The notes: generated by a model from the letters alone, not told the origin. Numbered from the stretch's first letter, positions 1,843-19,614 are shown. The stretch: DNA of 19,614 nucleotides from a virus (IMGVR_UViG_2609459791_000004:1-19614), one strand, 5' to 3'. Numbers and translations: made by a program.

Positions 1843-2401
1843 AATAAAGTTCCTCTAATGGTAGAGTAATATGATGTATACGGAAACATAAAAATGTTTA
1901 ATTGTTGTGAAAGTAATTGCAAACAGATGTCCTACTTTTATCCAATATTTATATGGAAAAGGATAATGCTTAAATCTGTTTTATTAATTATCGATGTGGT
2001 CTGGAGAGGCAACTGTCAAAAATCGCTCATACGAAACTAATGATTAGCAGAATAAGATCTATGAAAGAATATATTGCTATACGAAGTTTATTTTTATGGA
2101 GTGAAAAGTAACAGATATCATAATGATGCGAAAACTCTTCAGCTAATGTAATAAAGTTATATTATTAGATACAAAATCATTACAAAGTATCATTGAATCG
2201 ATGATAACTATAGATAGTGCTAATTATAAACATTTGCTTGTTGACTGCGAGTATCGACTTTGCGAATGGAGGCGGTGTCGGGTTTTATGTCGCGTGTAAT
2301 CACGACCCAAGGTGAATGGGAACGCATAAAAATCTGTTATTTACATCATATGATCATCATGTTTATTGCGTGGTTTATAAGTATTGTTATTGCACACTCA
2401 A

Positions 2402-2477
2402 GGCCCTTTAGCTCAGTGGTTAGAGCAGGCGACTCATAATCGCTTGGTCGCTGGTTCAAGTCCAGCAAGGGCCACCA
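2402..2477 (+). tRNA. tRNA with CAU anticodon, Ile2 (lysidine) type rather than Met
   Basis: 76-nt cloverleaf read directly: acceptor GGCCCTT/AAGGGCC, D-arm GCTC-AGTGGTTA-GAGC, anticodon loop CTCATAA (anticodon CAT), T-arm GCTGG-TTCAAGT-CCAGC, discriminator A and encoded CCA. Matches my recollection of E. coli ileX/ileY rather than metT or initiator tRNA. The ORF-track frame starting at 2384 reads through it and is an artifact. Confidence 0.88.
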
Positions 2478-3556
2478 AATCATTATTTACGTATCAGGAA
2501 GAGTTAAGGGTACAAGGGGTACTGGCGGACGTTAAAGCCCAGCCCTCCCATATCAGCAAGCCGCTGATGCAACGTATTGAATACTTCAGCAGCCTGGGCA
2601 GGCCAAAGGCTTATTCCCGCTATTTGCGTGAGACGATTAAGCCATGTCTGGAACGACTGGAGCATGTACGCGACAGTCAGCTATCCACTTCTTTTCGCTT
2701 TATGGCAAGCCATGAAGGGCTGGACGGCCTGCTGATCCTGCCTGAAATGAGTCAGGATCAGGTGAAACGCCTGTCTACTCTTGTCGCTGCGCATATGAGC
2801 ATGTGTCTTGATGCCGCTTGTGGTGATTTGTACGCCACCGATGATGTTAAGCCAGAAGAAATCCGCAAGACATGGGAAAAGGTGGCAGCAGAAACCCTGC
2901 GACTGGATGTCATACCGCCTGCGTTTGAGCAACTCCGCCGGAAAAGAAACCGCCGTAAACCCGTGCCCTATGAACTCATTCCGGGTTCGCTGGCGCGTAT
3001 GTTGTGCGCCGACTGGTGGTACCGGAAATTATGGAAGATGCGTTGCGAATGGCGGGAAGAGCAGTTGCGTGCTGTTTGCCTGGTCAGCAAAAAAGCATCT
3101 CCCTATGTCAGCTATGAAGCCGTGATGCATAAACGTGAGCAGCGCCGTAAGTCGCTGGAGTTTTTCCGTTCTCATGAACTGGTGAACGAAGACGGCGACA
3201 CGCTGGACATGGAGGATGTGGTAAACGCCAGCAGCAGCAACCCTGCGCATCGCCGCAATGAGATGATGGCCTGTGTTAAAGGTCTGGAGCTTATCGCGGA
3301 AATGCGCGGTGACTGCGCCGTTTTCTACACCATCACCTGTCCGTCACGTTTCCATTCCACGCTAAATAACGGCAGGCCCAACCCGACCTGGACAAATACG
3401 ACGGTAAGACAAAGCAGTGATTATCTGGTCGGCATGTTTGCTGCATTTCGTAAGGCGATGCACAAAGCCGGATTGCGCTGGTATGGCGTGCGGGTGACCG
3501 AAGTGCTGGAATGGCGGTATAAAGCGATTCAGAGAAGCGGGGCCAACGATGAGTGA
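2478..3556 (+). pseudogene. phage rolling-circle replication protein (P2/186 gene A-like) fragment, abutting the tRNA and running into the tape-measure start
   Basis: Open frame continues from the tRNA to 3556 with no credible start or RBS; first in-frame ATG is at 2567. Contains [14 protein letters not shown], which resembles Rep motif 1 of the phage GPA family from memory, but no HUH or active-site Tyr region follows. Its stop overlaps the tape-measure ATG, so the 3' part may derive from another gene (for example E'). Identity is from recalled motifs only. Confidence 0.35.
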
Positions 3557-5901
3557 TAACAACCTGCGTCTGCAGGTCATTCTTAATGCGGTTGACAAGC
3601 TCACCCGCCCATTTCGATCTGCGCAGGCCAGTTCAAGAGAACTGGCTGCTGCTGTCAAAAAATCCCGCGATGCAATAAAGCAGCTTGATCAGGCCGGGAG
3701 CAGTCTGGACAGCTTCCGAAAGCTGCAGGCAGAAAATCAGAAATTAGGCGACAGGCTGAACTATGCCCGCCAGCGTGCAAATTTGCTCAGTCAGGAACTG
3801 GGAGCGATGGGGCCGCCTTCGCAACGTCAGGTTGTTGCTCTGGGCCGTCAACGGCTGGCTGTTCAGCGCCTGGAAGAACGCCAGAAAAAGCTGCAGCAGC
3901 AGACGGCGCTTGTGCGTGCTGAACTGTACCGGGCGGGAATTTCTGCGAAAGACGATGCGGGAGCAACTGCCCGTTTAGCCCGTGAAACATCACGTTATAA
4001 CCAGGAACTTTCGAAACAGGAGGCGCGGCTGAAGCGACTGGGGGAAGCTCAGCGCAGGATGAATGCAGCGCGTGCCAGTTATGCCCGTTCGCTGGAGGTG
4101 CGTGATCGTATTGCAGGTGCCGGAGCCACCACCACGGCTGCAGGGCTGGCAATGGGCGCACCAGTGATGGCGGCAGTAAAAAGCTATACCAGCATGGAAG
4201 ATGCCATGAAAGGTGTGGCAAAGCAGGTCAATGGTCTGCGTGACGATAATGGCAACCGCACTGCACGTTTTTATGAAATGCAGGATGCCATCAAGGCTGC
4301 CAGCGAACAGTTGCCGATGGAAAACGGTGCGGTGGATTTCGCTGCACTGGTTGAAGGTGGTGCGCGCATGAACGTCGCAAACCCTGACGACAGTTGGGAA
4401 GATCAGAAACGTGACCTGCTGGCCTTCGCCAGTACGGCAGCAAAGGCGGCAACAGCCTTTGAGCTGCCAGCGGATGAACTGTCAGAAAGTCTGGGGAAAA
4501 TCGCCCAGCTCTACAAAATCCCCACCCGCAATATTGAACAGCTCGGTGATGCGCTGAACTATCTGGATGATAACGCCATGTCGAAAGGGGCAGACATCAT
4601 TGATGTGATGCAACGTCTGGGCGGTGTGGCTGACCGTCTGGATTATCGTAAAGCGGCGGCGCTGGGTTCCACCTTCCTGACACTGGGCGCTGCGCCAGAG
4701 GTTGCAGCCAGTGCAGCAAACGCGATGGTGCGTGAATTGTCCATTGCCACCATGCAAAGCAAGAGTTTCTTTGAAGGGATGAATCTGCTGAAACTCAATC
4801 CTGAAGTGATTGAAAAGCAGATGACGAAGGATGCGATGGGAACCATCCAGCGCGTGCTGGAGAAGGTAAACGCGCTGCCGCAGGACAAGCGCCTGTCTGC
4901 CATGACTATGTTGTTTGGTAAAGAGTTTGGCGATGACGCGGCGAAACTGGCAAACAACCTGCCGGAACTGCAGCGTCAGTTAAAACTGACAGCGGGCAAT
5001 GATGCGCTCGGCTCCATGCAGAAAGAATCCGACATTAACAAGGATTCACTTTCTGCGCAGTGGTTGCTGGTCAAAACCGGAGCGCAGAACACCTTCAGCA
5101 GCCTGGGCGAAACGCTGCGCCAGTGCAGCGTTCGAACCGCTTAAGCCCGTGTTCCAGTGGATTGGCGACAAAGTGCAGGCGCTGTGGGGCTGGTTTACTG
5201 ATCTGCTGACGCCCGTTAAGTCGACCTCTGCCGAACTGCAGAGCGCAGCGGCAATGGGGCGGCGATTCGGGGAGGCACTGGCGGAAGGGCTGAATATGGT
5301 CATGCATCCGCTGGACTCCCTGAAATCCGGCGTTTCCTGGTTGCTGGAGAAGCTCGGCATTGTCAGTAAAGAGGCCGCAAAGGCAAAACTGCCGGAAAGC
5401 GTGACGCGTCAGCAACCTGCGACGGTGAATGCAGACGGTAAAGTGATGATGCCATCGGGTGGTTTTCCATCATGGGGATATGGCTTTGCGGGGATGTATG
5501 ACAGCGGCGGGGATATCCCGCGCGGGCAGTTTGGCATCGTCGGTGAAAACGGGCCGGAAATTGTTAACGGCCCGGCAAATGTGACCAGCCGGAGAAATAC
5601 AGCTGCACTGGCTGCCGTTGTTGCCGGAATGATGGGCGTTGCTGCCGCGCCAGCAGAGCTTCCACCGTTGCACCCCTTGGCACTTCCCGCGAAAGGTGGA
5701 GAAGCAATTGTGAGTCGCGCAGCCACTGTGCCGCTCGTTCAACGGATTGAGGCACCGACGCAGATCATCATTCAGACGCAGCCAGGACAAAGTGCGCAGG
5801 ATATTGCGCGGGAGGTGGCACGCCAGCTTGATGAACGTGAACGCAGGCTGAAGGCAAAAGCCAGGAGTAACTACAGCGATCAGGGGGGATACGACGCATG
5901 A
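3549..5901 (+). pseudogene. P2-like tail tape measure protein (gpT), interrupted by a +1 frameshift near 5100-5145
   Basis: Two overlapping ORFs, 3549-5144 (531 aa) and frame +1 ending at 5901, together give about 784 aa, close to P2 gpT size. N-terminus [22 protein letters not shown], coiled-coil Q/R/A/L-rich composition and a Gly/Ala-rich C-terminus are typical of tape measure proteins. Frame 1 stops at 5142-5144 while the downstream frame carries ...AAFEPLKPVFQWIGDKV. Confidence 0.75.
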
Positions 5902-6383
5902 TGATGGTGCTGGGATTGTACGTGTTTATGCTGCGCACCGTTCCGTATCAGGAACTGCAGTATCAACGCAGCTGGCGACATGCGGCAAACAGTCGGGTAA
6001 ACCGACGTCCGTCCACGCAGTTTCTGGGACCGGAAAACGACATGCTGACGCTTTCCGGTGTTCTTATGCCGGAGATAACAGGCGGCAGGCTGTCGTTGCT
6101 GGCACTGGAGCAGATGGCAGAACAGGGGAAAGCGTGGCCCCTGATTGAAGGCAGTGGCACGATTTACGGTATGTATGTGATTGAGGGACTGAATCAGACT
6201 AAAACGGAGTTTTTCCGCGATGGTATGCCGCGCCGGATTGAGTTTACCCTGTCGCTCAAACGGGTGGATGAATCCCTGTCCGATATGTTCGGTGATCTCA
6301 GTGCGCAGCTGAATAATTTGCAGGATACGGCAACGTCTGCCTTAAGCGATATCAGTAAAACGGTGGGAGGGCTGCTGTCGTGA
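5898..6383 (+). CDS. P2-like tail protein U
   Basis: 161-aa ORF whose ATG overlaps the tape-measure stop (ATGA). Size and position between T and D match the P2 T-U-D order. Confidence 0.75.
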   Translation: MMMVLGLYVFMLRTVPYQELQYQRSWRHAANSRVNRRPSTQFLGPENDMLTLSGVLMPEITGGRLSLLALEQMAEQGKAWPLIEGSGTIYGMYVIEGLNQTKTEFFRDGMPRRIEFTLSLKRVDESLSDMFGDLSAQLNNLQDTATSALSDISKTVGGLLS

Positions 6384-7480
6384 ATTTCAGCTCTGAACTG
6401 CTTAACAAAGGCAACAAAACTCCGGCATTCAGCATCAGTATTGAAGGCAGGGATATCACTACTGTGCTGGACAACCGCCTGATGGGGCTTACGCTGACGG
6501 ATAACCGGGGCTTTGAAGCGGACCAGCTTGATCTGGAGCTGGACGACGCCGATGGAAAAATCGTGCTGCCGCGCCGTGGTGCGGTCATTACGCTGGCGCT
6601 GGGCTGGAAGGGGCAGCCGCTTTTCCCGAAAGGGGCATTCACGGTGGACGAGATTGAACACACTGGCGCACCGGACCGCCTGACTATCCGGGCGCGAAGT
6701 GCTGATTTTCGTGAAACACTGAATACCCGCCGTGAAAAATCGTGGCATAAGACCACCGTCGGGGAAGTGGTGAAGGAAATAGCCGCGCGGCACAAGCTGA
6801 AGATGGCACTGGGTAAAGACCTGTCGGATAAGCCAGTGGAGCATATAGACCAGACTAATGAGAGTGACGGCAGTTTTCTGATGCGGCTGGCGCGACAGTA
6901 CGGTGCCATCGCGTCGGTGAAAAATGGCAATCTGTTATTCATCCGGCAGGGGCAGGGCAAAAGCGCCACTGGTAAACCTCTGCCAGTGATCACTATCACA
7001 CGCAAGGACGGCGACAGTCACCGATTTACCCTGGCAGATCGCGGAGCTTACACGGGCGTAATTGCCAGCTGGTTGCATACCCGCGAACCCGCGAAGAAAG
7101 AAAGCACCGCGGTGAAGCGTAAGCGCAGGACTAAGAAGCAGAAGAAAGAGCCGGAAACGAAGCAGGGCGATTATCTGGTGGGTACGGATGAAAACGTGCT
7201 GGTACTTAATCGCACCTATGCTAATCGGAGTAACGCCGAACGGGCAGCGAAAATGCAGTGGGAACGCCTGCAACGCGGCGTTGCGTCATTCTCGCTACAA
7301 CTGGCGGAAGGGCGGGCAGATCTCTACACGGAAATGCCAGTGAAAGTCAGTGGCTTTAAACAGCCGATAGATGATGCGGAATGGACCATTACGACTCTGA
7401 CGCATACCGTCAGCCCCGATAACGGTTTTACAACCAGTATTGAACTCGAAGTGAAGATTAATGATCTTGAAATGGAATAA
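6380..7480 (+). CDS. P2-like late tail protein D
   Basis: 366-aa ORF with GTG start overlapping the U stop. Position directly upstream of ogr matches the P2 order, and size is close to P2 gpD. Confidence 0.78.
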   Translation: MNFSSELLNKGNKTPAFSISIEGRDITTVLDNRLMGLTLTDNRGFEADQLDLELDDADGKIVLPRRGAVITLALGWKGQPLFPKGAFTVDEIEHTGAPDRLTIRARSADFRETLNTRREKSWHKTTVGEVVKEIAARHKLKMALGKDLSDKPVEHIDQTNESDGSFLMRLARQYGAIASVKNGNLLFIRQGQGKSATGKPLPVITITRKDGDSHRFTLADRGAYTGVIASWLHTREPAKKESTAVKRKRRTKKQKKEPETKQGDYLVGTDENVLVLNRTYANRSNAERAAKMQWERLQRGVASFSLQLAEGRADLYTEMPVKVSGFKQPIDDAEWTITTLTHTVSPDNGFTTSIELEVKINDLEME

Positions 7481-7548
7481 AGTGTTCTCAATATTGATAT
7501 TTTTTGTATCATTACAATGATTCTGATAGCAAAGGTAGGGATCTGGAT

Positions 7549-7767
7549 ATGATGAATTGTCCAAAGTGTGGTCATGCGGCACACACAAGGAGCAGTTTTC
7601 AAGTAACTGAAAGCACCAAAGAGCGTTACTGCCAGTGCCAAAATATTAACTGCGGGAGCACTTTTGTTACTCATGAAACAGTGGTCCGGTTTATTGTGAC
7701 ACCCGCACTGATTGCTACTGCTCCTCCACATCCATTGCCAGGTGGTCAGGGGCATATGAATTTTTGA
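7549..7767 (+). CDS. ogr: Ogr/Delta-family zinc-finger late transcription activator
   Basis: 72-aa product MMNCPKCGHAAHTRSSFQVTESTKERYCQCQNINCGSTF with the CxxC-N22-CxxxxC zinc finger of P2 Ogr. GGTAGGG Shine-Dalgarno about 8 nt upstream of the ATG at 7549. The ORF-track start at 7504 (TTG) is probably too long. Confidence 0.85.
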   Translation: MMNCPKCGHAAHTRSSFQVTESTKERYCQCQNINCGSTFVTHETVVRFIVTPALIATAPPHPLPGGQGHMNF

Positions 7768-7774
7768 GAAAGAG

Positions 7775-7797
7775 AACCTGCTACGGCAGGTTTTTAT
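7775..7797 (+). terminator. rho-independent terminator downstream of ogr
   Basis: Hairpin CCTGC-tacg-GCAGG followed by TTTTTATT, starting 8 nt after the ogr stop. Confidence 0.7.
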
Positions 7798-7907
7798 TCA
7801 TCTGGGATCTCACCCGTTTCAAGAAAATGTATAAAGCCAGGCTCATCTATGATGATTGTGCCTTTCATCCTGGCTGCCGATACTTTTGATGGGCCTGCAT
7901 TGTAACC

Positions 7908-8285
7908 TCAACAGAGCATCTGAAGGCTTTGGGTTATAGAGGTTCTTACCGTTAATCCTTGTTCATTCGCCTTATCAACCAATCTTTCTTTATCTGCTTT
8001 CTTAAATCCGGTGAAACACACATCGAATGTATTTTTTTTCGGACCAGACTGCTTAGTGAGATGTGAGTAGCTTTCGGGGAGGAATGACGCGCATTCCTGA
8101 ATGGCTTGTTCTGGTGAATCGTACTGTTTAAGAATGCGGTCTTTTCGGAAGGTTTTTATTCGATCGGTGTTCTTACAAATGCCCTGTATATGATTTTCGC
8201 TATAACTGATGCTCTGTATAGAGTGAACAGCGATACGACCATTTGCATTGATGTAAACAAAGTGAAGTTCTTCCATGTGAAACAT
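7908..8285 (-). CDS. hypothetical protein with WYL-like N-terminal region and a truncated BRCT-like C-terminal segment
   Basis: 125-aa ORF in AT-rich DNA. N-terminal FVYINANGRIAVHSIQSIS...RIKTFRKDRI resembles the WYL-domain RxFRxDRI signature. C-terminal FDVCFTGFKKADKERLVDKANEQGLTV looks like the start of a BRCT fold but stops early. No clear Shine-Dalgarno. Confidence 0.35.
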   Translation of the reverse strand: MFHMEELHFVYINANGRIAVHSIQSISYSENHIQGICKNTDRIKTFRKDRILKQYDSPEQAIQECASFLPESYSHLTKQSGPKKNTFDVCFTGFKKADKERLVDKANEQGLTVRTSITQSLQMLC

Positions 8286-8363
8286 CTTTGCATGATTTCA
8301 AGATGGTGACAGGCAAGATGGACGCAAAAGTCTGTCGCCATTTTGCCGCCACTACCAAAGAAA

Positions 8364-8398
8364 AAGGGGCTACGCTTTCACGTAACCCCTTGATTTAT
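8364..8398. terminator. bidirectional hairpin flanked by A/T runs
   Basis: GGGGCTACG-ctttca-CGTAACCCC (9-bp stem, one mismatch) with AAAAA on the 5' side and TTGATTTATTT on the 3' side. Confidence 0.4.
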
Positions 8399-8421
8399 TT
8401 GGTGGGCTGGCGGAGTCTGAA
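8399..8421 (-). other. candidate attR core of the P4-like element: degenerate copy of the 3' end of the tmRNA gene ssrA
   Basis: Plus strand TTGGTGGGCTGGCGGAGTCTGAA resembles the reverse complement of the ssrA 3' end as I recall it (TGGTGGAGCTGGCGGGAGTTGAA) with two 1-nt gaps and one mismatch. It lies just outside the crr-like iterons, at the end of the element opposite an IntA-like integrase. From memory only, no alignment run. Confidence 0.3.
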
Positions 8422-8583
8422 TAACTCACGTAAATATCTGTTAATAGGTGGCTTTAACCAATTCAACTTTCTTCGGTATACCTAAGCGTATACCAATGGC
8501 GATTTGTTGCAGCGCTTCCTGTGATTAAGAGAACCTGTTTTTGGATAAATCACATCTAGAAAAAAACTTTTTTTTAGAAAAAC

Positions 8584-8675
8584 TGTTCACACTGTTCACT
8601 GTGCATTTTTATTTATAAAATTCATGACATTACGGGGTGAATGGTTGGTGAACAGTGAACACTTTACTGTTCATT
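8584..8675. repeat. iteron cluster resembling P4 crr (cis replication region), with adjacent A/T tract
   Basis: TGTTCAC at 8584-8590 and 8594-8600; GGTGAACA at 8647-8654; GTGAACA at 8655-8661; degenerate copies at 8636-8642 and 8668-8675. Both orientations present. Preceded by AAAAAAACTTTTTTTT at 8561-8580. TGTTCACC is, from memory, the P4 type I iteron bound by alpha. Confidence 0.6.
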
Positions 8676-8722
8676 TTACTGGCTCACAGAGGATTACCAT
8701 ACGAATCCTTAAGGACTTGCGG

Positions 8723-9523
8723 TCATTTTCGCCATTCTCTTGTTCCACTAATGTTAGACATCACATCGTCGAAGTTGAATTTTGGATCTGTATCTGGATT
8801 AAATTGGCCATTTTTACTTTCATAAATGAAATTTTGACAATCACAATTGCTGTCACTTTCGCCGCAGTCCATGCATTCAGCATTACAGTAATCTATCATC
8901 CTATCAATGGCATCCCAGGGCTCATAATCGTAGTCGAAATGTCCATAACCACTACTGCCATAAATTCTTCCATTTATGAAGTCGTCAATGTCACTAATAT
9001 TTCTTAACTGGCAGTTGAAAATATTTGATATAGGTCTAAGGACTACCCTCGCATAATCAAATTTGTATAAGGGCATTTCAAAGAAAACCTTACCATTATC
9101 AGCTTTAAGACTGTGAAAAGATAAATCTCCATATTTTTCTATAAGTTCCTTATATCTTTTTTTATCCAGCTCAACATGCTTGAATGAGTTGTTAATCGCA
9201 TCCAAAAGAGAAAACTTATTGCTAATGTGCTTACTCCCATCCACTTCATATCGTTTATCGAAGCTTTTAATAAAATCAGTTCTGGTTATTTCAGTTTTCT
9301 TTTTTGCAATAAATATCATGTAATCAACAACGTGAGCCAAGATTGCGTTAAATGAAAATACATGATGAAGCTTCAGTGTATTGTTGTTTAGTATTGTGAA
9401 AAACTCTTCAGATGCTGGGGTTAAAACATTATCCAAATAAGAAAGGAGATAGCTTGCATCTTTTTCATCGGAGCTGCCTGTGTATAGTTCTATTGCGCTT
9501 CCTTGATGGTTGAGATTTATCAT
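8723..9523 (-). CDS. hypothetical Cys-rich protein, cargo ORF between the crr-like iterons and alpha
   Basis: 266-aa ORF in an AT-rich block inside the GC-rich satellite backbone. C-terminal cluster CNAECMDCGESDSNCDCQ suggests possible metal binding. No family recognised. Confidence 0.55.
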   Translation of the reverse strand: MINLNHQGSAIELYTGSSDEKDASYLLSYLDNVLTPASEEFFTILNNNTLKLHHVFSFNAILAHVVDYMIFIAKKKTEITRTDFIKSFDKRYEVDGSKHISNKFSLLDAINNSFKHVELDKKRYKELIEKYGDLSFHSLKADNGKVFFEMPLYKFDYARVVLRPISNIFNCQLRNISDIDDFINGRIYGSSGYGHFDYDYEPWDAIDRMIDYCNAECMDCGESDSNCDCQNFIYESKNGQFNPDTDPKFNFDDVMSNISGTREWRK

Positions 9524-9689
9524 TAATAACCGCCAGTAAGTTCTATTAATCTGGGAAAATTAACCGTGATAAATGAAGTATAGCGACTTCCTTCATTGCT
9601 ATGCAATCATACGATTGTTTCATTACATTGAATCAATTCTCACTCAGAACTGTATCTTAAATTGTGCATAATGTCTGGACTGAGAGTGC

Positions 9690-9715
9690 AAAAAAAAGAC
9701 CGGCGATTGCCGGTC
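9690..9715 (-). terminator. rho-independent terminator downstream of alpha
   Basis: On the minus strand, hairpin GACCGGC-aatc-GCCGGTC followed by T8, about 10 nt after the alpha stop. Confidence 0.7.
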
Positions 9716-9723
9716 AGGTCAGG

Positions 9724-12057
9724 TTATTTCGCTAGGGGGTCATCACATTTCGGCAGCCAGTCGGCGTTGCTTTCCTCTCTTAACGCGAGATTGGTTTGTA
9801 TGCCCTGATTTTTTCGGCGCTTCTCATAACTTAGCCCGTACTCTTTCAGCATGGCTGGCAGCCCCTTACCGAACATGGTGAGGCTGAGAGTATTCCTGTA
9901 GCCGTGGGCTTCCATATACGCCAGATAGGCATGATACAAATACAGGCGCGGCTGACGCGGAATGATGTTGGCATTGCCAATATACATGCCCTCAGGCTCC
10001 GGCAGTGCCTCCAGATAGCCACAAAAATCAAAGGCCGGATCGGCGTCGCGTTTGATGCTGAGTGCCTCGTCGGAGTTCTGCTGTGACTGGAGCAGGGCAC
10101 GCGCTGTCATCGGGTTGCTGAACTTCTGCATAAGCTGGCGCACAATCACGGCCAGCTCGCGCGCAATTTTATCCCTGAGCTGCGGGTCGCGTTCCTCCGG
10201 GGCAATCTGCTCAGGGAAGTGGATGATTACCCGGCGACGGGAAACACCGCCGCTGCGGTCGGTAAAGCGCATCGGGTTATTGTTCACGGCCAGAATCACC
10301 GCAGGAATATGGGTGGAGTACGCATCCTTGTATTTCGGGTCAACGGAGACCGCATCCCCGCCGGTGATGGCCTTGAGTCCTGCCCCGTCACCGCTCCATT
10401 TCTCCTGGTCAGGCAGACGGATTAGCGAGAAGCCAATCAGCGCAGCACGTTCACGCGGCGACTCCAGCGTTTCGATAGTGGCCGATGTGGCGTTATCTTC
10501 CCCGGCAAGCATGGTCGCAATTTCGGCCAGAATACTTTTTCCGCTGCCACCGGGTCCGGTCACCTCAAGAAAGAGCTGCCAGTCGTAACGGTTCGCCAGC
10601 ACCATAAACAGCGCGGCCAGAATCACGTCGCGTTTTTCCGGTTTGCCACCGGCGGCGCGGTCGAGCCAGCGCCAGAACTCCGGGGCGTGGGTTTCCAGCG
10701 TTTCCCCCTCTACCGGTGGGGTAAAATCGACATCACAGAGTGTGCGCAGCCAGTGCGATTTATGGTGTGGGCTGAAAGTACCCGTGGCGGTATCGAGTAC
10801 TCCGTTACGAAAGCCAATCAGACGCCGTGCCGGGGCATCCTGCTGCGGAATAATCAGTTTCAGGGTCTCCACCACTGAGGCAATTTTCCCCGACGAGAAC
10901 GGTGCGCGCAGACGCTGGAACAACCCGGCCACGTCGCGGGCAAAATCCGACGGCGGAATGATTTTCCATATCCCGGCCTCATAGCGGGACAGGAGCTGGC
11001 CGTTTGCATCCACGGCCAGCGCTTCGCCGTAATGCTCATGCACCCGCATCGCCTTTTCACTGGTGCTCATGGCGGTAAATTCTGCCTCGCTCATGGTAGC
11101 GAAAGGGCTGTCAGCCGGTGGCCGGATGGCGTCATAAATCGCTTTTCGTGTCGCCTCTTCGCCTTTCTGAACAAACGCATCATTCCAGTCACCGAATACC
11201 GGCGGCAGGGCAACAACGCCTTCACAGGCTTCTGCGGCCGCGGCGGCTTTACTCTGACCATCGCCGTTCAGGTCACGGTCGGCGGCGAGGACAATCTGAC
11301 AGGCCGGGTGTTTCTGGCGGACAAGGCTCGCCAGAGAAAGGAGGTTCACGGACGACAGTGCCACCATGACGGTTTCACCGGTCAGGTGATGCACGGTGAG
11401 CGCGGTCGCATAGCCCTCCGCTATCCACAGGCGTTTTCCGGCCTGTTTCTTCCCTTCGATGACATGACATGCTCCTTTAACCTGACCGCCCTTCAGGGTG
11501 CGTTTGAGACCGTCAGAATTGATGAGCTGAAGGTTTACCAGCGCGCCGGTATCGTCATACAGCGGGACAACCACATCCCCGGCGCGGAACGTCACGCCGC
11601 CGGTTTTATGCATGACCGTAAGTACCGGACATTCCCGGTCGGGGAAGCCCTTGCGGGTCAGGTAGGCGTTGCCGCTGGCAGGTTGGGTTTTCTCCATGAG
11701 CCTGACGGTCAGTGCGGCCGCCGCTTTGCGGTCAGCCTCCGTTTCAGCCTCTGCGGCCGCAATCACTTCGGGGGCAACCGGTGGCAGGTTGCCGGTCACG
11801 GCGTCCACCCTCCCGGCAGCCTCTGATGCGGTCACGCCAAACACTTTCTCGACCAGCTTAAGACCGTCACCCGCACCGCACTGGTTACAGAACCACGTCC
11901 CGCGTCCCTCTTTATCGTCAAAGCGGAAACGGTCAGAGCCGCCGCACATCGGGCAGGCCTGATGCCGGTTTTTCATGACCTTCACACCAAGCGCCGGAAG
12001 AATGCGCGGCCAGTGGCCGCACGCCTGTTTTACCGTCTCTGTTACGTTCATTTTCAT
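9724..12057 (-). CDS. P4 alpha-type bifunctional primase-helicase
   Basis: 777 aa, the same length as P4 alpha. N-terminal zinc-binding CPMCGGSD...FCNQC, primase motif EGYATA, Walker A GPGGSGKS. GAGGGAG Shine-Dalgarno upstream of the ATG at 12057. Confidence 0.9.
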   Translation of the reverse strand: MKMNVTETVKQACGHWPRILPALGVKVMKNRHQACPMCGGSDRFRFDDKEGRGTWFCNQCGAGDGLKLVEKVFGVTASEAAGRVDAVTGNLPPVAPEVIAAAEAETEADRKAAAALTVRLMEKTQPASGNAYLTRKGFPDRECPVLTVMHKTGGVTFRAGDVVVPLYDDTGALVNLQLINSDGLKRTLKGGQVKGACHVIEGKKQAGKRLWIAEGYATALTVHHLTGETVMVALSSVNLLSLASLVRQKHPACQIVLAADRDLNGDGQSKAAAAAEACEGVVALPPVFGDWNDAFVQKGEEATRKAIYDAIRPPADSPFATMSEAEFTAMSTSEKAMRVHEHYGEALAVDANGQLLSRYEAGIWKIIPPSDFARDVAGLFQRLRAPFSSGKIASVVETLKLIIPQQDAPARRLIGFRNGVLDTATGTFSPHHKSHWLRTLCDVDFTPPVEGETLETHAPEFWRWLDRAAGGKPEKRDVILAALFMVLANRYDWQLFLEVTGPGGSGKSILAEIATMLAGEDNATSATIETLESPRERAALIGFSLIRLPDQEKWSGDGAGLKAITGGDAVSVDPKYKDAYSTHIPAVILAVNNNPMRFTDRSGGVSRRRVIIHFPEQIAPEERDPQLRDKIARELAVIVRQLMQKFSNPMTARALLQSQQNSDEALSIKRDADPAFDFCGYLEALPEPEGMYIGNANIIPRQPRLYLYHAYLAYMEAHGYRNTLSLTMFGKGLPAMLKEYGLSYEKRRKNQGIQTNLALREESNADWLPKCDDPLAK

Positions 12058-13699: not shown

Positions 13700-13804
13700 G
13701 GTGAACAGTGGTGAACAGAGGGTGAACAGTCAGACCCTCAACTGTTCACCCTTTATCTTACTGTATTACTTATATTTTTATTTAAGGTGAACAGTGGTGA
13801 ATAG
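13700..13804. repeat. iteron cluster resembling the P4 replication origin
   Basis: GGTGAACA at 13700-13707, 13710-13717, 13721-13728 and 13786-13793; inverted TGTTCACC at 13743-13750; degenerate GGTGAATA at 13797-13804. Includes an 11-bp inverted repeat GGGTGAACAGT-N10-ACTGTTCACCC. Flanked by A/T-rich DNA. Confidence 0.6.
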
Positions 13805-15896: not shown

Positions 15897-16370
15897 TTGT
15901 TTAAGCGGAAAAATAAAAATTCAGTTCCTTCATTTACACAAGATTTTCATTATCTTACTGCCCTCATTCAGCATTTAGGTGCTCATGAGAAATGGAATAG
16001 CAGAACACCAAGGAATATAGCCGACAGTCTTGGGATGGATATAAATGAAGTCGAAAGAGTTTTGCGGTCATACCCGGCATTCTTCAGGCGGTCGGGAAAC
16101 CTTAGTACTCAAGGAGAACCGCTTTTCATGATTCATTTGCGATATGCGAGAAGAAGACGAAATGCCGATGATGGTTCACGAGAGTCCCCACCTGTTGAAC
16201 CAGCTGAACTAGGTATGATGCTAGATCTTGTTACTAAAATGATTGCAGTGGAAGAGCAAGGTAGGCGGTTGTCAGTTGATGAAAGAAATAACAGTCTTAA
16301 ATTGTGGTTGGCGATATTGCTTGCAGCTATTTCAACATTAACCACCTTGGCTGTAGCATATATAAAATGA
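15897..16370 (+). CDS. small C-terminally membrane-anchored protein with a possible HTH-like segment; first gene of the hotspot operon
   Basis: 157 aa with TTG start 7 nt after GGAGG. C-terminal hydrophobic helix LKLWLAILLAAISTLTTLAVAYI. Segment RNIADSLGMDINEVERVLRS resembles a helix-turn-helix. AT-rich. Confidence 0.55.
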   Translation: MFKRKNKNSVPSFTQDFHYLTALIQHLGAHEKWNSRTPRNIADSLGMDINEVERVLRSYPAFFRRSGNLSTQGEPLFMIHLRYARRRRNADDGSRESPPVEPAELGMMLDLVTKMIAVEEQGRRLSVDERNNSLKLWLAILLAAISTLTTLAVAYIK

Positions 16371-16377
16371 GGTTCAT

Positions 16378-18384
16378 ATGAAATTGATTTCATTCAGGAT
16401 TAAAAATTATCGCTCAATTTTTGATAGTGGGATAATAACGACTGAGAAATTGACGGCAATACTTGGTAGAAATGAAAGTGGAAAGACCAATTTATTATCC
16501 GCACTTTATAGCCTAAAACCAGCAGAGGAATTTAGTGCCCTTGATAAAATTAAAAACTTTCCAAGAAATAGAAGGTTAGAAGAGTGCGATGACTCGACTA
16601 GAGTTGTGGAGTCTACATGGGAGTTAACAGACTCAGAATTAGTTGAGTTAGGACGCATCTACCCAAGAGCAAAAAACAGTAAACAGGTAACTGTAACTAG
16701 AAATTATAGCAAATCTAGACAAGTTGGATTCTCAAAAATTGAACCATTTGACTATGATGCAAATGCGATTAAGAAAAAATTCGGCAAAGTCTTGCTGAAT
16801 ATTGAAAATGCTATAGACGATAATGAATATGATGGAGTAGATAAAGAAACTATTCTAATTCAGTTTCGCAATCTAATCTCTGAGATTTCTCCTGATGACA
16901 ACGAGGGAGTTTTTTCTTGGGCTGGTAAAGTTGGTGAGAAAATTAATGAATTGAATAAGGGTTTTGATAAATATGATTTAGTAATAAAAGAAGATAATGA
17001 GACTTTCATTGACTCTATGAGCGAGTTGATAGTTGGAGTGAAAAATGATGCAGCTTTAAGTCAAAAGGCCAGGGATTGGGTTGTTCAGACCATGCCTGTA
17101 TTTATTTACGTTGATGAATATCCCGAGCTTGAAGGACATCAAAATATTGGGCAATACTTCGAGAGGAAAAGACTTAACAATCAAAGTAAAGCTGATGTGA
17201 ATTTTGATAAGCTATGTAAAGTTGCAGGCATTAAGCCAGAGCAATTGCACGAAAACAAAAATGATCCTGAGGTAAGGAATCAGCTAGCTAACCGTGCAGG
17301 GGCTGTTGTAACACAGGAAATTCATAGATTATGGAAAGATAAACCGCTAAAAATTCGATTCAATCTTGATAATGATTATTTTCATACCTATGTTTCTGAT
17401 CATAACAGTGGATATGATGTTGAAGTAAATCTCGATGAAAGAAGTCGCGGTTTTAAATGGTTCTTCTCTTTCTATATTACATTTTGTGCAGATACACATG
17501 GGGGGGATGCTGAGAATGCAATTATTTTGTTAGATGAGCCCGGCCTATACTTGCATGCTAAATCTCAAGGGGATTTGTTAAATCATCTAATTGATGACTT
17601 TGCTAATCAAATTATATATACAACACATTCACCATTCTTAGTTCCTGTGAAGGATATTTCTGCTATAAAAACTGTTTCGATCTCTGAAGAGGAAGGAACA
17701 AAAGTCACTAATGATCCTAGTGGTGATTCTACAACTTTATTCCCTCTCCAGGCAGCGTTAGGATATGATATTGCTCAGTCGTTATTTATTGGCTCTCATA
17801 ATTTGATTGTAGAGGGTGTAACTGATTATTGGTATATATCGGCATTATCTGAATACCTCATTTCTAAGGGCATGACCGGGCTGAATGACAACATTACAAT
17901 CACTCCTGCTGGAGGAGCACAGAAAGTATCTTACTTAGTATCTTTGCTATCATCCCAAAATCTTAATGTTGTTCTTCTTTTAGACGATGAGAGAAATAGT
18001 CGTCAGACCTCTATAGAAATAGTAAATGGAAAACTGATAGGGCAGAAAAATATTGTCTTTGTATCAGAGGTTCAAAGTGGGGATGTTACAGAGGTTGATA
18101 TTGAGGATCTGTTTGATAAAGAAATGTTCAGAAGACTTATATCAGAGGCCTATTTTCCAGATGTAAGTGAAGAATTAAAGTTTAATGACAAAGTTCCGAG
18201 GATAACTAAGCAAGCTGAAGAGGCTTTGAAACTGCACAAAATGAAATTTGTGAAAGCTAAACCAGCTAGGTTGTTCTTATCTAAATTGAAGGATGCGAAT
18301 GGTGATTTTCTATCTCTTGAAGTAATGAGGAAATTCGAGGCTTTATTTAAAATAATTAATAAAAAGATCTCATCCAAGAAATAG
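16378..18384 (+). CDS. OLD-family ABC-type ATPase fused to a Toprim nuclease domain
   Basis: 668 aa. Walker A GRNESGKTN near the N-terminus after an IKNYRSI beta-strand motif; signature-like DERSRGFKWFFSF; Walker B AIILLDEPGLYLH; His-switch YTTHSP. C-terminal Toprim-like IVEGVTDYWY and LLLDDE. GAGG Shine-Dalgarno 5 nt upstream of the ATG, 7 nt after the upstream stop. Confidence 0.8.
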   Translation: MKLISFRIKNYRSIFDSGIITTEKLTAILGRNESGKTNLLSALYSLKPAEEFSALDKIKNFPRNRRLEECDDSTRVVESTWELTDSELVELGRIYPRAKNSKQVTVTRNYSKSRQVGFSKIEPFDYDANAIKKKFGKVLLNIENAIDDNEYDGVDKETILIQFRNLISEISPDDNEGVFSWAGKVGEKINELNKGFDKYDLVIKEDNETFIDSMSELIVGVKNDAALSQKARDWVVQTMPVFIYVDEYPELEGHQNIGQYFERKRLNNQSKADVNFDKLCKVAGIKPEQLHENKNDPEVRNQLANRAGAVVTQEIHRLWKDKPLKIRFNLDNDYFHTYVSDHNSGYDVEVNLDERSRGFKWFFSFYITFCADTHGGDAENAIILLDEPGLYLHAKSQGDLLNHLIDDFANQIIYTTHSPFLVPVKDISAIKTVSISEEEGTKVTNDPSGDSTTLFPLQAALGYDIAQSLFIGSHNLIVEGVTDYWYISALSEYLISKGMTGLNDNITITPAGGAQKVSYLVSLLSSQNLNVVLLLDDERNSRQTSIEIVNGKLIGQKNIVFVSEVQSGDVTEVDIEDLFDKEMFRRLISEAYFPDVSEELKFNDKVPRITKQAEEALKLHKMKFVKAKPARLFLSKLKDANGDFLSLEVMRKFEALFKIINKKISSKK

Positions 18385-18420: not shown

Positions 18421-19614
18421 TTAGTGTATGTTTCTTACCTTTATACCCCACCATTCCATCAGTGATTTTCGTTGTTCTAAGTAAGTGGAACGGTTATATG
18501 CCTTTCTAACTTCATTTTTATCGGAATGAGCCAATGCCGCTTCGATTACATCCGCATTAAAGCCTTGTTCATTTAGGGTTGTACTAGCAATAGATCTTAA
18601 ACCATGCGCAACAAGCTTCCCACCGTAACCAATTCTCTTCAACGCGGCATTAGCTGTTTGACTATTCATCGGTTGCTTTGGATCATTTCTGCTCGGAAAA
18701 ATATGTTCACGATGAGCGCTGATTGGCTTCATCACTTCCAGAATATCTAATGCCTGTGTCGATAGGGGAACAATATGCTCACGCTTGGCCTTCATCCGCT
18801 CGGCTGGAATAGTCCAGAGCTTCGCTTCGAGATCGATCTCTGCCCAACGAGCACCGGAGGCTTCAGAAGGGCGCACAAGGGTCAGAAGTTGCCACTCAAT
18901 AAGACAACGCGTCGGAACAGACAGATTAGACATAACCAAAGAACGCATCAGCTTCGGTAATTCTTCTGGCCGCAGAGTCGGCATGTTTTGTTTTTTTGGT
19001 TTCTCAAATGCCATACCAATTCCTGACGCAGGGTTGGCATCAATCAAACCGGTGTTAACCGCATAAATCATGATCTCGTTTATGCGCTGCACCAGTCGAC
19101 GAACAGTCTCAAGCGCTCCACGAGCCTTGATTGGCTCAAGGGCTTCAACCAGAGTTCGGGCTTTGATTTGCTGAACGGGGATCTCACCGATGGCAGGGAA
19201 TACATCTTTCTCCAGTGAGCGCCAAATGTCTTTTGCGTAATCAGGAGTAACGCTTTTGCTTTTGAGCTGGAACCAGTTAGCGGCGACCGTTGAAAAAATA
19301 CTGTCCAGCTCGATTTGCTGCTGTTCCTCTGCAACTTCAGCCTGAATTTGCGGGTCGATTCCGTTGGCTAGCAAGGCTAGGTAATCCGCTCTCAACCCTC
19401 GGGCATCAGCAAGCGAAAGGGCAGGGAAGGCACCGAGCCCCATCATTGTCCGCTGCTTTGTTGTCGGACGTTGATAACGAAAACGCCAGAGTTTTTTCCC
19501 GCTGGTTTTCACTATCAGGAAAAGCCCATCGCCATCATGCAGCGTTAGATCCTTCTCCAACGCTTTAGCGCGCAGAACTTCGGTGTTGGTCAGGGGGCGT
19601 GTTGTCCGTGCCAC
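18421..19614 (-). CDS. P4-type tyrosine integrase (IntA-like)
   Basis: 397 aa. N-terminus ARTTRPLTNTEV...DGDGLFLIVKTSGKKLWRFRY resembles CP4-57 IntA. C-terminal catalytic residues in HGLRSIASTTL and VRKAYNRSTYLEQR. Apparent GTG start sits on the last three bases of the window, so the true start may lie just outside. Confidence 0.88.
   Translation of the reverse strand: MARTTRPLTNTEVLRAKALEKDLTLHDGDGLFLIVKTSGKKLWRFRYQRPTTKQRTMMGLGAFPALSLADARGLRADYLALLANGIDPQIQAEVAEEQQQIELDSIFSTVAANWFQLKSKSVTPDYAKDIWRSLEKDVFPAIGEIPVQQIKARTLVEALEPIKARGALETVRRLVQRINEIMIYAVNTGLIDANPASGIGMAFEKPKKQNMPTLRPEELPKLMRSLVMSNLSVPTRCLIEWQLLTLVRPSEASGARWAEIDLEAKLWTIPAERMKAKREHIVPLSTQALDILEVMKPISAHREHIFPSRNDPKQPMNSQTANAALKRIGYGGKLVAHGLRSIASTTLNEQGFNADVIEAALAHSDKNEVRKAYNRSTYLEQRKSLMEWWGIKVRNIH

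Follow-up and report, generated by a model that had tools for sequence, protein, structure and literature searches.

The ssrA locus and its P4-like satellite

The window, by which we mean the whole 19,614-nt stretch of DNA that was analyzed (IMGVR_UViG_2609459791_000004:1-19614), is E. coli DNA around ssrA. It begins with an alpha-amylase-like host gene (1-1842), which is followed by a deleted P2-like prophage (2384-8422) comprising a gpA fragment, a tape-measure fragment (3549-5144), U, D (6380-7480), ogr (7549-7767), a 125-aa ORF at its end (7908-8285, minus strand) and a 3′ fragment of ssrA (about 8300-8422), with positions 8300-8422 being a 97-99% match to the 3′ end of ssrA. The left end of a P4-like satellite, with its att core region, overlaps this fragment at 8399-8422, and homology with other ssrA-integrated P4-like elements begins at 8397-8405. 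A P2-like remnant of the helper type and a P4-like satellite are found in tandem at ssrA. MB19 and 20AR0354 carry the same P2-like remnant beside an intact ssrA, with the satellite missing, and the arrangement of remnant plus satellite as a whole occurs in no complete E. coli genome of our collection. An identical copy of the satellite is present in strain MB20, where it spans about 11.4 kb, close to the 11,624 bp of the P4 genome, and ends at an intact ssrA.

Within the remnant, ARAGORN calls a tRNA-Met (CAT) at 2402-2477, inside an ORF whose RefSeq annotation is that of a replication-endonuclease (gpA) fragment. The GC content rises from about 0.33 to 0.52 exactly at this call, which may be spurious or may reflect a genuine tRNA at the junction of an earlier integration. 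The 125-aa ORF, lying between ogr and att in a moron-like position at the prophage end, matches PHROG 2561 ('DNA ligase', E = 1e-53) and is annotated as a BRCT-domain protein in some genomes.

Next to att, the satellite has a conserved segment (8455-8512), found again past alpha and crr in many P4-like loci from other species; it presumably holds the integrase arm sites, and it served us as a marker of the satellite end. This is followed by a single crr-like unit (8561-8677), consisting of an A/T tract and type-1 iterons (TGTTCAC/GTGAACA), which matches positions 4291-4329 and 4471-4571 of the P4 crr in blastn comparisons. An AT-rich stretch of 1013 bp (8678-9690), carrying the gene that is our subject here, ORF266, on the minus strand, comes next. 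Immediately upstream of it, in the direction of transcription, is the hairpin of the alpha intrinsic terminator (t-alpha; 9698-9715, minus strand), which is homologous to P4 t-alpha (4604-4628). The alpha gene itself (9724-12057, minus strand) encodes a primase-helicase of 777 aa with matches to the Pfam models Zn_Ribbon_Prim, Toprim_3, D5_N, DUF5906 and Pox_D5, and its nucleotide identity to P4 alpha is 78-80%. Genes for DUF5375, Ash/Icd-like and AlpA-like proteins separate alpha from the ori iterons (13701-13793; five GTGAACA/TGTTCAC copies), beyond which come sid, delta and psu, and an integrase gene (18421-19614, minus strand) that runs past the end of the window.

The hotspot between psu and int is also occupied, not by ORF266 but by a cassette on the plus strand (15897-18384) encoding a 157-aa ORF and a 668-aa ATPase-TOPRIM protein of the OLD family. 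The latter matches AAA_15, AAA_21 and OLD-like_TOPRIM in Pfam and Old, AriA and GajA in PADLOC; WP_032182295 is among the psu-int systems listed by Rousset et al. (2022, PMC9122126). Given this OLD-type cassette together with ORF266, a single satellite carries two separate candidate defense cargoes.

ORF266 as cargo of the primase-att interval

ORF266 (8723-9523, minus strand) runs from ATG to TGA and encodes 266 aa, a protein identical to WP_032182282.1 of MB20. Its GC content, 0.34, is below that of alpha and the remaining backbone (0.56-0.63), and the GC profile falls to 0.31-0.38 across the stretch from 8678 to 9690. A preliminary description of this DNA, made from the sequence alone, had seen here an AT-rich gene placed between the alpha terminator and the crr-like iterons, and both its dimensions and its placement are borne out: ORF266 lies directly downstream of alpha, co-directional with it, between t-alpha and the crr unit, from whose iterons it is 45 bp removed.

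The same description had taken the gene to be inserted cargo, and the decisive evidence for this comes from an empty site. E. coli LR-03 carries a P4-like element, integrated at ssrA, whose homology to the window stops at 8677 and restarts at 9691, with 14 bp in place of the 1013 bp of the window; therefore, 8678-9690 is an insertion. Related satellites and P4 hold 13-14 bp at the same position, the P4 crr (4291-4590) abutting t-alpha (4604). Neither target-site duplications nor terminal repeats were found at the junctions, whether in the sequence itself or in the comparison with LR-03. The satellite lineage has one crr unit, and P4 has two 120-bp repeats that are 60 bp apart; since LR-03, with its empty site, likewise has only one, the insertion did not remove a crr unit.

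Another argument for insertion, the distance from ori to crr, fares less well. It is indeed longer here (5.0-5.1 kb) than in P4, but P4 as annotated has 4.7-4.9 kb and not the 4.5 kb or so given in the preliminary description. The difference of just 0.2-0.3 kb is small because the left operon of this satellite is about 0.7 kb shorter than that of P4, and the distance is therefore weak and uninformative as an argument.

As for expression, no consensus promoter upstream of ORF266 passed a promoter scan. A weak candidate sigma-70 promoter can be picked out by eye at 9577-9606 on the minus strand (TTGCAT and TATACT, 18 nt apart); it matches at 8 of 12 positions and failed the scan. Read-through of t-alpha would be an alternative means of expression.

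The interval between alpha and att proved to be variable well beyond this lineage. We retrieved 80 P4-like loci of other species with alpha and located the satellite markers in them by blastn with the crr and arm sequences. In 32 of the 80 loci, a crr- or arm-like marker stands 700 bp or more past the alpha stop, with one or more ORFs of 100 aa or longer in the space between them; in 37, the marker is within 700 bp of the alpha stop, and the other 11 yielded no marker, one of them with too short a downstream sequence for a judgment. Thus, the slot, which is empty in LR-03 and P4, is a variable one. The comparison of the interval across P4-like satellites, which the preliminary description had proposed, reveals some recognized defense systems among its contents, namely a complete Septu pair PtuA/PtuB (L059), a type IV Mrr-like restriction enzyme (L083), an AriA/OLD-like ATPase (L040) and Mrr-like or HNH nucleases (L052, L061, L068), along with many proteins without a recognized function. 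ORF266 itself is no backbone gene of P4-like elements: it is present in none of these 80 loci and in 6 of 5426 complete E. coli genomes. The exact copies retrieved come from several host backgrounds, and without exception they occupy this slot and belong to this satellite lineage.

Within the interval, we resolved three insertion points. The first, between t-alpha and crr, is the one used in the window (others being, e.g., L031, L040, L052 and L089), and the third lies between crr and att in Pantoea-type loci (L061, L081). The second is an apparent one, between two crr units, seen in the Mangrovibacter loci L041 and L065. Iterons are found there about 50 bp past alpha and a second crr-like unit about 1.9 kb further, with an ORF of 440 aa between the units in L041 and ORFs of 154, 241 and 116 aa in L065, such that the cargo appears to have been inserted between the two crr repeats.

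The slot as such has been reported before as a minor defense hotspot of P4: the main text of Moura de Sousa et al. (NAR 2026, PMC13586616) places 7% of P4 defense systems between the primase and an att site. The slot described here agrees with it in location, in its variable content, in holding some defense systems and in having empty sites in relatives, and the three insertion points go beyond the hotspot description given in that main text, in which we found no description of the ORF266 gene. In the earlier work of Rousset et al. (2022, PMC9122126), the psu-int site was the only P4 hotspot described. By its location, the variable content of the interval and the defense systems found there in other loci, ORF266 is cargo of the P4-like primase-att defense hotspot. 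It also resembles the cargo of the psu-int hotspot of P4 and of the gpA-gpQ and tin/old hotspots of P2 (PMC9122126), all of which hold single AT-rich genes or small cassettes that are swapped between near-identical elements.

The ORF266 family and its domain architecture

The protein had been considered an orphan with no recognizable family. No model in Pfam, NCBIfam, PADLOC or PHROG matches it, the sole hit in PADLOC-DB 2.0 being to Cas6 at the level of noise (E = 0.022). However, a search of 5.8 billion clusters places it in a conserved family, with 111 homologue clusters recovered at E below 1e-48 and 40-83% identity, nearly all of them 251-272 aa long (typically about 256 aa). The 90%-identity cluster of ORF266 alone has 349 members from E. 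coli, Klebsiella, Salmonella, Cronobacter and Citrobacter. The family as a whole is distributed across Gamma- and Epsilonproteobacteria, in Serratia, Photorhabdus, Yersinia, Citrobacter, Klebsiella, Salmonella, Acinetobacter, Psychrobacter, Vibrio, Photobacterium, Shewanella, Pseudoalteromonas, Kangiella, Sulfurovum and other Campylobacterales. Thus, far from being an orphan, it spans several bacterial orders and several kinds of mobile elements.

An alignment of 40 family sequences has 27 invariant columns, and in comparisons of ORF266 with seven homologues pN is 0.10-0.23 with synonymous sites saturated, i.e., the family is under strong purifying selection. The GC content of the gene is 30-36% in every host, regardless of the GC content of that host. 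Together, the invariant columns, the low pN with saturated pS and the uniform GC point to a constrained gene that moves horizontally.

More distant relatives did not emerge. An exhaustive HMM search of 1.84 billion representatives returned 55 matches, about 20 of them full length and all of them family members, with neither annotated remote relatives nor domain shuffling among them. A permissive Pfam scan of 40 members yielded scattered noise (PBDC1 in five, NADase_NGA in three, Rubredoxin in two), and sequence searches of the PDB with full-length and N-terminal domain profiles gave chance matches only. One Logan contig (P0109, 247 aa) joins family residues 50-173 to a match to the LHH nuclease-toxin domain (PF14411). 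We rejected it as a case of module swapping, as it is a single short contig, truncated at the N-terminus, with the break falling inside the beta-meander described below; it is probably a rearrangement or a pseudogene, though it could be a natural chimera.

The AlphaFold2 model of ORF266, built from a 40-sequence alignment, is confident (pLDDT 86, pTM 0.83) and divides the protein into two domains. The first ten residues (9494-9523), which have low model confidence, precede both. Most homologues, including many members of the same 90%-identity cluster, are 256 aa long and start where ORF266 has Ile11 (ATA); this allele can start only at the upstream ATG and therefore has a 10-residue extension.

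The N-terminal domain (9128-9472, minus strand; residues ~18-132) is a helical bundle that holds most of the invariant polar residues, namely H64, D67, R81, K103, N111, K115 and H116. The invariant or near-invariant set as a whole reads H64-x2-D67-Y68, R81, D89, K103 and N111-N-x-x-K115-H116, and the most conserved stretch of the family is the NNSFKH motif at N111-H116 (9176-9193, minus strand; AAC AAC TCA TTC AAG CAT).

The bundle may weakly resemble HEPN-domain toxins and abortive-infection proteins, for example the MNT-HEPN toxins 7ae2 and 8xdj and YutE (1ylm), from which the family departs in several respects. The R-x4-6-H motif of HEPN domains is missing: Arg is found at the motif position in none of the 40 aligned sequences, which instead have an invariant N111-x4-H116. 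Where the toxin motif has a Tyr at +2 after the His, the ORF266 family has a nearly invariant E118. Moreover, ORF266 has no MNT partner and possesses an additional acidic Cys4 domain of 130 residues without a known relative. No HEPN-type Pfam family matches any of the 40 members, even at E-values up to 5. Since the R-x4-6-H signature is missing and N-x4-H stands in its stead, we do not file ORF266 as a HEPN member; that it works like a HEPN RNase is a hypothesis, and to ascribe nuclease chemistry to it would be speculative.

The C-terminal domain (8726-9127, minus strand; residues 133-266) is made up of a three-stranded beta-meander and helices together with a Cys4 knuckle, and its tail, S-x-ISGTREW, is conserved. 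This half of the protein is strongly acidic, with a median net charge of -11 and a pI of 4.4 across the family. It also contains the dense terminal cluster of cysteines that had been pointed out previously: five of the six Cys residues of ORF266 (C213, C217, C220, C227 and C229) lie within 17 residues, as C213-x3-C217-x2-C220-x6-C227-x-C229 (8837-8887, minus strand). The last four of these, in a CxxC...CxC arrangement, are invariant in all 40 homologues, and the cluster is presumably a zinc site. No structural relative of the Cys4 domain was found among PDB structures, and casting it as a sensor, as we do below, is for this reason a guess.

Genomic contexts and the probable function of ORF266

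The homologues are dispersed over several kinds of elements, repeatedly in the company of defense genes. In Serratia quinivorans (L005) and S. marcescens (L110-L112), they occupy the position between the portal gene gpQ and gpA in P2-like prophages, which is the main defense hotspot of P2, and the S. marcescens copy directly follows the portal and adjoins a SmaI restriction-modification system. A Citrobacter integrative island carries a homologue with PDC-S31, PDC-S06 and EcoRII, and an Acinetobacter contig (L007) has one beside a type II CBASS-like set with a SMODS-type cyclase, ThiF/E1, JAB and a SAVED effector. Elsewhere, a P22-like phage (L098) has a homologue past its tailspike, with a RES toxin as neighbor, and on Acinetobacter plasmids the neighbors are a resolvase and gop/beta/cII-like genes. 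An islet of A. baumannii groups the gene with an M78/RmrA-like and a DUF4411 gene, an islet of Photobacterium holds it as one of three genes, and the Psychrobacter homologue stands by itself among housekeeping genes. On an IMG/VR contig (L099, 6174-6953), a member of 34% identity belongs to an element that also encodes a tyrosine recombinase, an rve transposase and a Zot-like protein of the filamentous-phage kind, which extends the family to yet another element type.

Across the contexts compared, as in the window, we found no conserved partner or antitoxin gene; the neighbors differ in every context, in contrast to the conserved adjacent partner by which type II toxin-antitoxin systems are recognized. 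DNA homology between family copies ends at the ends of the ORF. The lack of a conserved neighbor and this limit of DNA similarity argue for a self-sufficient module. ORF266 is, then, a real, inserted, conserved and partner-independent gene whose family recurs in the defense hotspots of several kinds of elements.

A published prediction points the same way. In the DefensePredictor study of the E. coli pangenome (DeWeirdt et al., Science 2026, PMC13092281), WP_032182282.1 belongs to the 1,041 uncharacterized predicted clusters (Table S10, 'uncharacterized_clusters') and bears the label 'Predicted novel defense gene'. Its mean log-odds is 6.73 (range 5.78-7.64) at a strict cutoff of 4, and its HHblits and Foldseek columns are empty, the authors having obtained no hit with either tool. 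The study gives this prediction without domain, fold or context analysis. As neither the accession nor its cluster id appears in Tables S6-S8, which hold the cloned and validated systems, the protein was not experimentally tested there; the overall experimental validation rate of DefensePredictor was 45%. The role in defense that had been put forward as plausible is thus considerably better supported, by the contexts of the homologues and by machine-learning prediction for this very protein.

We therefore consider it probable that ORF266 is a functional, mobile single-gene cargo, most likely a stand-alone anti-phage protein of the abortive-infection type. From the evidence above, we infer both the defense against phage and a division of labor between the two domains. 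The protein would be an autoinhibited single-chain effector, in which the conserved polar cluster of the N-terminal bundle may form an active or ligand-binding site, possibly that of a nuclease of HEPN-like fold acting on RNA. The acidic, presumably zinc-stabilized C-terminal domain could serve as a protein-sensing or regulatory module that holds the effector off until a trigger from the phage, probably one of its basic or nucleic-acid-binding proteins, releases it. What speaks against a defense role is that no profile model of a catalogued family matches the protein, that the promoter scan gave no consensus promoter, that the Psychrobacter copy has only housekeeping genes around it, and that fewer than half of the DefensePredictor candidates were validated. 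A bolder form of this proposal, to which we give only tentative credence, is that ORF266 founds a single-protein immunity family combining a HEPN-like N-x4-H (K115/H116) effector with a novel-fold acidic Cys4 phage sensor, shared by P2-type helpers, P4-type satellites, P22-like phages and plasmids. If true, a parasite and its helper would carry the same weapon.

The acidity of the C-terminal half across the family could also be read differently, with a zinc-stabilized domain acting as a nucleic-acid mimic or decoy. ORF266 would then be a counter-defense or anti-restriction factor, shielding the satellite, and likewise the P2- or P22-like phages, against restriction or other immunity of the host as they enter it, and the carrier elements must indeed evade host defenses themselves. 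This is unlikely: copies also turn up in plasmids and chromosomal islands, embedded among defense genes rather than in early or entry regions, and one (Psychrobacter) has only housekeeping genes around it. Furthermore, the seven invariant polar residues of the N-terminal bundle suggest catalysis or ligand binding and not simple mimicry, DefensePredictor scores the protein as defensive, and the known cargo of both the primase-att slot and the P2 gpQ-gpA slot is defense.

Similarly improbable is a selfish toxin, an addiction-type gene or a host-fitness moron that stabilizes its carrier without acting on phages. An AT-rich and highly mobile gene on many kinds of elements, which sometimes adjoins toxin genes (RES in L098; M78/DUF4411 in A. 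baumannii), might well invite such an interpretation. Yet the family has no conserved antitoxin or partner, its DNA homology ends with the ORF, and exact copies are stably kept as a single gene in complete genomes.

The position of ORF266 downstream of alpha and co-directional with it, close to the crr iterons and with no strong promoter of its own found, brings up a role in the interaction of satellite and helper, in which read-through of t-alpha on activation would yield a factor modulating the helper phage or replication near crr. The presence of the family in both P2-like helpers and a P4-like satellite accords with such a role. We hold it to be quite improbable, however, because most P4-like satellites, P4 included, lack ORF266, and because homologues exist in settings that lack P2/P4 biology, namely Acinetobacter, Psychrobacter, Vibrio, Shewanella, Campylobacterales and a P22-like phage. 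Finally, that ORF266 is a chance or decaying ORF without function, as a gene with no family annotation and no recognized promoter might be, is effectively refuted by the constant length of the 111 clusters, the 27 invariant columns among 40 sequences, a pN far below the saturated pS and the confident AlphaFold2 model (pLDDT 86).

Returning to ORF266 as an anti-phage protein, both the hotspot and the defense prediction for this exact protein were already published, so that it is a good but unsurprising defense candidate and the practical gain from the present analysis is modest. What is new here is the breadth of the family, its domain layout, the residues to be targeted by mutagenesis, the distinction of three insertion points and the finding that a single family lives in hotspots of helper-type elements as well as of satellites. 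If validated, ORF266 would represent a compact (~256 aa), partner-less defense protein that has no detectable relation to the catalogued systems and whose C-terminal domain has a fold without known counterpart. It would likewise provide a cargo gene amenable to experiment from the primase-att interval, the less-studied hotspot of P4-like satellites. The family would also offer a way to ask whether defenses borne by satellites spare the helper.

It is equally a test case for the claim, made in the abstract of PMC13586616, that P2 and P4 exchange defense genes rarely or almost never. The ORF266 family is common to P2-like and P4-like hotspots, in copies that are not near-identical. The amino-acid identity of the Serratia P2-hotspot copies to the P4-borne copy is 74-83%.
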